64,000 nucleotides of DNA from NCBI GenBank assembly GCA_036788295.1, contig DAIQNR010000006.1, forward strand, positions 51,523 to 115,522. Reading direction: 5' to 3'. Both the position numbers and the translations under genes were made by a program. This document shows, in pieces, positions 47,223 to 48,845 of the stretch (the first letter of the stretch is position 1; the number at the start of each line of letters is the position of its first letter). Source of the stretch: Myxococcota bacterium. GTDB taxonomy: Bacteria; Myxococcota; Kuafuiibacteriia; Kuafuiibacteriales; Kuafuiibacteriaceae. The notes beneath the pieces are model-generated. The model had not been told where the DNA came from. It ran no database searches and was given only the letters and a program-made list of their open reading frames with translations.

Positions 47223-48845
47223 CTACGAGGTCGTCTCGATCGGCCGCGGTGCGCACGTTCGGGCGCCGTGGGCCTCGAGGAGCGCCGCCGCTTCGTGGTG
47301 CCCATGCCGCTCGGCGTCGTCTCGCGGCGTGCCGCCCCAGCGATCGACGGGGTCCACCTCGACCCCGCGCTCGAGCAAGAACTCGATGACTTCGAGGTGC
47401 CCCTCCGCAGCGGCGAGATGCATGGCGGTTCGGCGGTCGTAGTCGGCGAGATGCAGGCAGTTGGCGCGGGCGCTGAGCCGCTTCAGCGCGGATACATCCC
47501 CCTTGCTCGCGGCCCACAGCACGGGACCCACCCGGTCCGCGCGCTCCTCTCCAAATGCGATCCGCGGGTCGTCCTTCTCCGTGAGTCCGGTGAGGTTGTC
47601 GTAGTTGTGGAAGTTGTACCGGCTGACGAGGCCCCGAGCCATCGCGAGGCCTCGAACCGAGTTCCCGAAGCTGTCGAGGCGGGGGGACCAAGTGACCATG
47701 CCCATCACGTTCGGCACGACGACCATGATCGCCCCGGCTACGCCCGACTTCGCCGGGAGCCCGACGGTGAACGCGAACTCCCCCGAGAAATCGTACATCC
47801 CGCAGCTGTACATCAGGGACATGCAGTTGCGGACGGTCTGCGGCGAAAACACCGTCTCCCCGGTGAGCGGGTTGACCCCTCCGTTGGCCAAGGTGGCGGC
47901 GAGCACCGCCATCTTCTTGGTCGTGACGTCGATCGAGCAGCACATGAAGTAGAACTCGAGGGTCTGGTGCAGATCGGTGCCCGGAGGGAACGCCTTGTTC
48001 TCCTGCATGAAATAGCCGAGCGCGAAGTTGCGGTCAGCGGTCTGGCGCTCGGACAGGTACACTGAATTGTTGAATCCGACCTTCGCGCCACACGCTCGGC
48101 GCCACTGCGCGAGCACGTAGTCGAACCGGTCGGACATGTCTTCGCCCGGGCGAAGCAGCGAGCAGCACATGATGGCGCCGGCGTTGATCATCGGGTTGTG
48201 CGGTTTGCCGTCGGCGTTCAACGCGAGCTCGTTGAAGCCGCGACCGCTCGGCTCGCGCCCGACGTGCTCATGCACCTTGGCCTCTCCGTGCTCCTCGAGC
48301 GCCAGGCAGTAGTTGATCGGCTTGCAGGTGGACTGGACGCAGAAGTCCAGGTCGTGGTCGCCGAGGTCGATGCGCTGGCCGTCGATCGTGCACACCGAGG
48401 CCGCCCAGTGCTCCGGATCGACCCGAGACAGCTGGGGAATGTAGTTGGCGACTGCGCCCCCGTCTTCGTCCCGGCACTGCTCGAACAGGCCGGTGATGCT
48501 CGCGCGAAAGCGCCCGAACTCGGGGATGACCATTTCTCCTGAGATTGCACGCTCGACCGTGCTGATGCCAGGCTGAATGACCTGGCAGAACGCGTTGTAG
48601 TCCATGCCCGCTTCGGTGTGGTCGCGGAGGCGAGCGAGGACTGGGCGCAGCCGGGGGTCGGTCGCGACGTCGAGCCCCGACGCCTCGAGCGCTTCGGTGA
48701 GCTCGGCGCGGCTCACGAGTTTCTGCGAGCCGGCAAGCGAGGCAAACAACCGGCGCTCCCGGAGGACCGCCGGCTGGGCCAGCTCCTCCGGGGCCAGGCT
48801 GACCGGCGACGCATCCGCGGTCGCCGTCGAGTGGTCTCGATGCAT
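47223..48845 (-). CDS. glsA: Kidney-type (GLS-like) glutaminase with N-terminal EF-hand-like domain and C-terminal ankyrin repeats
   Basis: 540 aa from ATG 48845 (AAGGGGAG RBS). [32 protein letters not shown]...[19 protein letters not shown]...[30 protein letters not shown] and C-terminal [70 protein letters not shown] are colinear with human GLS/KGA including its ankyrin tail. Confidence 0.85.
   Translation of the reverse strand: [540 protein letters not shown]

Follow-up and report, generated by a model that had tools for sequence, protein, structure and literature searches.

The gene described here occupies positions 47223..48845 on the minus strand of a 64,000-nucleotide stretch of DNA from an uncultured Myxococcota bacterium (assembly GCA_036788295.1, contig DAIQNR010000006.1, positions 51,523 to 115,522; referred to below as the window). 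It encodes a glutaminase of 540 residues, in which an EF-hand-like domain, a catalytic domain and ankyrin repeats follow one another as they do in the human kidney-type enzyme KGA. An earlier note on this DNA had taken the likeness to the human protein as a possible sign either of gene transfer between the domains of life or of a myxobacterial lineage with an unusually metazoan-like architecture. We conclude instead that this is very probably a native chromosomal gene of its host and a member of a large bacterial clade, and that its likeness to human GLS and GLS2 goes back to ancient common ancestry. The sequences closest to it come from bacteria (67% and 59% identity, against 46-50% for eukaryotes), the grouping of the window protein with eukaryotes receives 0% bootstrap support in neighbour-joining (NJ) trees, and its codon usage is native, all of which speaks against the transfer proposed earlier.

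The three-domain architecture is firmly established by profile, sequence and structure comparisons. Counting Pfam domains only above the gathering cut-off of each model, we find an EF-hand-like helical N-domain (residues 33-108, 48522..48749; EF-hand_14, PF17959, 28.9 bits against a cut-off of 23.7), a glutaminase catalytic domain (residues 130-415, 47601..48458; PF04960, 370.7 bits against a cut-off of 27, spanning profile positions 1-286 of 286) and a C-terminal ankyrin module of three repeats (residues 443-529, 47259..47519), all on the minus strand. The last of these is recognised by four hidden Markov models above their cut-offs (Ank_4, 49.9 bits; Ank_2, 42.6; Ank, 33.2; Ank_3, 27.5), so that the ankyrin similarity, whose lack of HMM support the earlier note had named as grounds for refutation, is real at the level of profiles. 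The catalytic domain has the serine-dependent beta-lactamase-like fold and matches the NCBIfam model TIGR03814, 'glutaminase A', with 302.7 bits (cut-off 255.4). A phmmer search of PDB sequences joined residues 31-526 of the window protein to residues 5-506 of human KGA (5uqe_A) in one alignment (E=6.9e-158), and human GLS2 (8szl) was matched with E=9.5e-146. An AlphaFold2 model of the 540-residue protein, built with 59 homologues, reached a pLDDT of 88.2 and a pTM of 0.83, and its best Foldseek matches were the human KGA chains 8gwr_B and 5uqe_B (TM scores of 0.86-0.87 normalised to the query and 0.92 normalised to the target; rmsd 2.6-2.7 A over about 504 columns). The N-domain helices of the model (residues 25-38, 46-55, 64-75 and 83-101; pLDDT 89-97) superpose on the N-domain of KGA, and its ankyrin region forms the helix pairs 431-447/451-460, 474-481/484-492 and 507-513/517-525. 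Pfam, the single alignment to a PDB sequence and the superposed model thus agree on the colinearity with human KGA across three domains that had been proposed from the letters.

By every architectural measure, then, the window protein is a multidomain glutaminase of the KGA type. Residues 30-526 align with KGA 140-642 in one stretch, the domain order is the same and both proteins have three ankyrin repeats. Identity to human KGA is 49% overall; by region it is lowest in the N-domain (28%), 49% in the ankyrin region and highest in the catalytic core (57%, where the eye had estimated 50-60%). The single-domain bacterial enzymes (E. coli YbaS, 1u60; B. subtilis YbgJ, 1mki; Micrococcus luteus, 3agd) have the catalytic fold and its residues in common with the window protein, but their match is confined to residues ~114-417 (E values between 1e-48 and 1e-57) and they carry neither an EF-hand-like nor an ankyrin domain, which bears out the expectation that typical bacterial GlsA proteins lack the flanking domains. 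Equally, the protein is not an enzyme of the vertebrate mitochondrial kind. It has only about 30 residues before the N-domain, where vertebrate GLS proper carries a mitochondrial presequence or long N-terminal extension, and the allosteric-pocket residues of the vertebrate enzyme are replaced, as discussed below. Unlike that of human KGA, the gene is a bacterial one, intronless and uninterrupted and preceded by a Shine-Dalgarno sequence.

The extent of the gene deserves comment, as the longest form of the minus-strand open reading frame (ORF) ending at 47223 begins with a GTG at 48968 and would give 581 residues. A Shine-Dalgarno-like AAGGGGAG (48851..48858, minus strand) lies 5 nt upstream of the ATG at 48845-48843, which favours the 540-residue form over the GTG start; the stop codon is at 47225-47223. 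Public gene calls agree, and the boundaries given at the outset were therefore right, as was the ankyrin peptide quoted with them, which is found in the translation. An identical public protein (P0001, 100%) has the 540-residue form and is encoded on a 125-kb NCBI contig and in three Logan assemblies. Since gene order is identical in these three independent assemblies, a chimeric contig carrying a eukaryote-derived glutaminase fragment is unlikely.

The architecture is common among bacteria. The best 120 matches to the window protein in a collection of 5.8 billion proteins all combine glutaminase and ankyrin Pfam domains (120/120), most with EF-hand_14 as well, and their identity to it is 51-67% once a few tandem-duplicated proteins are set aside. 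Those with a named source are bacterial except for one ostracod and two EukProt transcriptome entries; the names include Nannocystis radixulma, Nannocystis sp., Myxococcota, Kofleriaceae, Planctomycetota, Acidobacteriota, Candidatus Thiodiazotropha, Pseudomonadota and Dadabacteria, while Blastocatellia and Kordiimonas aestuarii were matched in a search started from a EukProt sequence. A search of 1.84 billion representative proteins gave 150 matches, many of them long multi-copy proteins, and was not used for taxonomy. We also scanned one genome per GTDB species with peptide patterns taken from the window protein, a procedure biased to close relatives. The window's own genome lies outside these species representatives, the best match among which is 59% identical. 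The scan yielded 47 loci, 38 of which encode all three domains as judged by blastp, and these loci fall in Myxococcota, Planctomycetota, Acidobacteriota, Nitrospirota, Pseudomonadota, Bacteroidota and Obscuribacterales; with Dadabacteria from the protein search, at least eight phyla are covered. An enrichment in Myxococcota is apparent in this query-biased sampling. Many of the loci come from metagenome-assembled genomes (MAGs) of Planctomycetota/Phycisphaerae, Acidobacteriota, Bacteroidota, Obscuribacterales, Hyphomicrobiales, Kordiimonadaceae and Thiodiazotropha. Others come from cultured Enhygromyxa salina (three strains), from Flavobacterium sp. MC2016-06 and from a closed 4.7-Mb Nitrospirales chromosome, and the presence of the gene on that chromosome and in cultured strains of Enhygromyxa, Nannocystis, Flavobacterium and Kordiimonas rules out eukaryotic contamination. 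The same Pfam architecture is seen in the proteins of Nannocystis radixulma (P0008), Enhygromyxa salina (L016, L017 and L023), Kordiimonas aestuarii (P0316) and Flavobacterium (L021), with identities of 47-59% among the genome representatives and a maximum of 67% for a metagenome protein (P0005). NCBI annotation names these bacterial proteins 'glutaminase A'. The proposal of an unusually metazoan-like lineage is not supported. The window protein sits inside a broad bacterial clade in which ankyrin-tailed glutaminases are common, the very outcome that the earlier note had named in advance as lowering the novelty.

Phylogenetic analysis places the window protein among these bacterial sequences. 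The tree set of 63 sequences included the window protein, 52 bacterial sequences (from bacterial genomes and named proteins, and including five outgroup glutaminases without ankyrin repeats), human KGA and GLS2, one ostracod protein, three EukProt sequences and three sequences without a taxon. NJ trees were built from Kimura distances with 300 bootstraps. In the tree of catalytic domains, a KGA-like clade is separated from the single-domain GlsA outgroups with 99% support, and the window protein groups at 95% with P0005, a JGI metagenome protein whose 67% identity is the highest among the sequences found, and with L032, a protein of a Myxococcota MAG that consists of the catalytic domain only and is 72% identical to the window protein over it. 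The full-length tree pairs the window protein with P0005 at 99-100%. Metazoa form a clade of their own in both trees (90% for the catalytic domain, 100% for the full length), and by Kimura distance the full-length window protein is nearer to bacteria (0.44-0.62) than to eukaryotes (0.79-0.92). In the rooted NJ tree, two-domain proteins from Kribbella branch between the single-domain GlsA enzymes and the three-domain clade, a position that would fit a stepwise build-up of the architecture within bacteria.

Several points weigh against a native bacterial gene of ancient common ancestry with GLS, or soften its details. The trees use a simple distance correction rather than maximum likelihood, and the eukaryotic sampling is thin (GLS, GLS2, one ostracod and three EukProt transcripts of unconfirmed eukaryotic origin). 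The backbone within the KGA-like clade has less than 50% support, which leaves the relation of bacteria to eukaryotes, and the direction of any ancient transfer, unsettled. The gene tree departs from taxonomy, for example in a Bacteroidales and Hyphomicrobiales pair supported at 100%, so that the gene has probably spread laterally between bacteria and need not have descended strictly vertically in this lineage. On the functional side, the literature gave no enzymatic data for bacterial three-domain members. A conserved operon partner is absent both from the window and from the neighbourhood of P0005, and the probable physiological role is accordingly read from the enzyme family.

These same weaknesses leave some room for an ancient transfer in the reverse direction, in which the three-domain enzyme would have arisen in early eukaryotes, passed a single time into a bacterium and from there moved laterally through the bacterial phyla. 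The patchy distribution and the conflict between gene tree and taxonomy could be explained in this way, as could the weakness of the backbone and the fact that eukaryotes are not monophyletic in the NJ trees. In addition, when a EukProt sequence served as the query, bacterial proteins were matched at 52-56% identity and other EukProt entries at only 48-49%, so that these sequences are as close to bacteria as to one another; the family as a whole is compact. Against this, structural diversity is greater among the bacterial proteins, which have one or two ankyrin modules, canonical EF-hand loops in some cases and catalytic-only derivatives in others. Moreover, a two-domain combination of EF-hand_14 and glutaminase exists in Actinomycetota outside the three-domain clade, and the family extends over at least eight phyla. 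On balance we regard an ancient eukaryotic origin as improbable.

A recent transfer of a GLS-type gene from an animal or protist into the myxobacterial lineage is far harder to sustain, and we consider it largely refuted and its probability very small. Its appeal lies in the colinearity with human KGA at 49% identity, and ankyrin repeats are more typical of eukaryotes. Set against this are the bacterial best matches (59-67%, as compared with 46-50% for eukaryotes) and the trees, in which Metazoa are monophyletic and stand apart from the window protein. The activation loop, GRGFNELAL, is of the bacterial/protist type and not the vertebrate one. Codon usage and GC content at third codon positions (GC3) were compared as well. 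Among 25 in-frame ORFs of the window, the glutaminase has a GC3 of 0.882 (0.859 +/- 0.032 for the other ORFs; z=0.71) and a GC content of 0.670 (0.698 +/- 0.030; z=-0.90), and it ranks third among the 25 for typical codon usage, values that are native-like throughout. No integrase, transposase or other mobile-element genes were found near the glutaminase. Nothing, in short, suggests recent acquisition of the gene.

Returning to the native bacterial gene, its product is in all likelihood a catalytically competent L-glutaminase converting glutamine and water to glutamate and ammonium. The catalytic and substrate-binding set of human KGA, which we take to be Y249, S286, K289, N335, E381, N388, Y414, Y466 and V484, is reproduced without exception in the alignment by Y135, S172, K175, N221, E266, N273, Y299, Y351 and V369 of the window protein. 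The Ser172-x-x-Lys175 motif (human S286/K289) maps by the same alignment to 48321..48332 on the minus strand. By analogy with KGA, Ser172 would act as the nucleophile and Lys175 as the base, with Tyr135, Tyr299 and Tyr351 assisting; the enzyme would form a tetramer, and the N-domain and ankyrin repeats may tune oligomerisation and activity as they do in KGA. That the protein is instead a pseudoenzyme or an amidohydrolase for another substrate, with its ankyrin and EF-hand-like domains serving as a scaffold, might be entertained for a subgroup whose regulatory-loop residues are unlike those of KGA, but the identity of all nine residues to KGA and to characterised bacterial GlsA, a core 57% identical to KGA and a full-length Pfam match make it exceedingly improbable. 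Absence of a signal peptide and of a presequence points to a cytoplasmic location, and glutamine catabolism and nitrogen balance are the probable physiological role.

Regulation probably differs from that of the vertebrate enzyme, to judge from the residues involved. The equivalent of the human activation loop (residues 315-325, GLRFNKLFLNE) maps by alignment to residues 201-211 (48213..48245, minus strand). The human residues K320, F322 and Y394 are replaced by E206, A208 and F279, while L321 and L323 are retained and L316/R317 become Arg and Gly. It follows from the first three replacements that neither the BPTES pocket nor the lysine implicated in phosphate activation is conserved. The E/A/F combination is that of most bacterial relatives, in which the loop takes the form GRGFNEL(A/T)L, and a glutamate stands at the K320 position in 44 of 49 bacterial relatives as well as in three EukProt sequences, so that the vertebrate phosphate and BPTES site is a derived feature. 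According to a review, the allosteric site of bacterial glutaminases is pre-stabilised and independent of phosphate, and the filament interface is missing from these enzymes; the review does not specify whether three-domain bacterial enzymes are covered (PMC13142944).

The N-domain of the window protein probably does not bind calcium, because its first loop (residues 37-48, nt 48702-48737) is without Asp ligands; these have been lost in human KGA as well. Some bacterial relatives differ in this respect. A canonical 12-residue EF-hand loop (e.g. DVDGDGRISARE) is kept in the N-domain of 17 of 167 bacterial three-domain relatives, including P0085, P0107, P0111, P0115, P0286 and P0034, whereas the corresponding loop of the window protein is degenerate. 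Classical EF-hand Pfam models match these relatives only below their cut-offs. The retained loops hint that some bacteria may possess Ca2+-regulated glutaminases.

Domain composition varies in other ways across the family. Many bacterial relatives are longer (~640-720 residues) owing to a second ankyrin module, whereas the window protein has a single module and is a short form like KGA; the second module repeats the equivalent of residues ~437-529 (L003, L009, L010, L011, L013, L015, L020, L036, L037 and L046). Two loci of cultured Actinomycetota, both Kribbella spp. (L040:5899-7347 and L043:5986-7491), encode EF-hand_14 (32.9 and 35.0 bits; cut-off 23.7) and glutaminase domains without ankyrin repeats, at 38-39% identity. 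The KGA-type catalytic domain also occurs alone in the Myxococcota MAG mentioned above (L032:5878-6993), in Polyangiaceae (L038:1514-2575) and in Francisellaceae (L039:406-1437), with core identities to the window protein of 72%, 59% and 56%, respectively. As L032 is among the closest relatives and yet catalytic-only, secondary domain loss is suggested. In the Myxococcales MAG HK-STAS-MYXO-17, two full three-domain glutaminases and an ankyrin ORF stand in tandem (L010, ~5917-11775). Four predicted proteins from EukProt and NCBI (P0002, P0014, P0057 and P0044) contain two glutaminase units each, which inflates their bit scores; the cause is tandem duplication for the protist transcripts and probably mis-assembly for the ostracod model. 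Finally, the MAG labels of L004, L019 and L031 ('Clostridia', 'Bipolaricaulota' and 'Enterobacteriaceae') are at odds with the gene tree, the 'Clostridia' copy being nearly identical to a Blastocatellia protein and the 'Bipolaricaulota' fragment pairing with a Myxococcota MAG at 100%; mis-binning is the likely cause.

The surroundings of the gene are those of a bacterial chromosome segment with a GC content of ~69%. The Myxococcota identity of the host, already given in the earlier note, agrees with the matches to the SpeA arginine decarboxylase encoded in the window: among the best 78 rows (63-85% identity), every named one is a Myxococcota, Myxococcales or 'Deltaproteobacteria' MAG. Further genes in the window encode a poly(A)/CCA polymerase, a TonB-dependent receptor, PFOR, an AraC regulator, a GDSL lipase, a Wzy_C protein, a fasciclin protein, glycosyltransferases and a polysaccharide flippase; a partner in nitrogen metabolism was not found. 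A 337-residue ORF without a Pfam match (46196-47209, minus strand) begins 13 nt past the glutaminase stop on the same strand and is followed by the Wzy_C gene. It is probably co-transcribed with the glutaminase, but it is not next to the glutaminase in P0005. Neither a sigma-70-like promoter nor a riboswitch was recognised for the glutaminase, and terminator-like sites occurred at chance level; Rfam gave no matches at E<=1 for the window or for the sequence preceding the glutaminase, and no tRNA genes were found in the window.

Some bacterial relatives have Amt or GS-like neighbours, which are absent around the window gene and also around P0005, whose gene context is unrelated to that of the window. 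An all-against-all comparison of flanking ORFs at 42 loci brought out no partner in common with the window, the largest groups being the Amt ammonium transporter and a histidine kinase, at eight loci each. Amt is thus nearby in 8/42 related loci and a GS-like gene lies immediately upstream in 4/42, while the kinase is of the HisKA type and an OmpR-type regulator is found in six of the related loci (examples among these loci are L008:2337-3689, L001:875-1945 and L003:1040-3943). The Amt and GS-like neighbours of these relatives fit a role in nitrogen balance.

Two further features of the window may be recorded. A 193-nt direct repeat (99% identity) has one copy at 49026-49218, within the 630-bp intergenic region upstream of the glutaminase, and the other at 50891-51083, where it forms the 3' end of a glycosyltransferase gene (50893..52800, minus strand). 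The two copies bracket a fasciclin-domain gene (49476..50783, plus strand), and two Logan assemblies stop inside the first copy; the repeat may be the scar of an insertion or duplication, or else an artefact of assembly. Elsewhere, two very large plus-strand ORFs (6030-10121 and 9908-14689; 1363 and 1593 residues, GC3 0.89-0.91) have as their sole Pfam match a short Met-zincin (DUF4953) motif in the second.

The architecture and its link to human GLS are already known. A study by Pasquali and co-workers in the Journal of Biological Chemistry (2017, 292:11572) reportedly solved 5uqe and analysed bacterial multidomain glutaminases and their connection to the human enzyme, and its abstract is said to trace the multidomain architecture to inheritance from bacterial ancestors. 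The review cited above refers to that work and, on the ANK repeats, goes no further than to place their acquisition early (PMC13142944). A literature search combining myxobacteria, glutaminase and ankyrin found nothing. What is new here is an uncharacterised member of the family, at most 67% identical to any sequence found, and the finding carries little weight as a discovery, given that the architecture is widespread in bacteria and routinely annotated 'glutaminase A'. It is conceivable, though we think it unlikely, that the bacterial three-domain glutaminases were the direct source of eukaryotic GLS and GLS2, and that their N-domain derives from a working Ca2+-binding EF-hand still kept in some bacteria. 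If this were true, Ca2+-regulated glutaminases would exist in some bacteria and the donor would be identifiable, possibly as a myxobacterium-like organism rather than an alphaproteobacterium. More immediately, these proteins offer a modest resource, being homologues of a cancer drug target that lack introns, are easy to express, retain the N-domain and ankyrin repeats and have a different activation loop. Such homologues could help to dissect the roles of the flanking domains and the evolution of phosphate activation and of the BPTES pocket.

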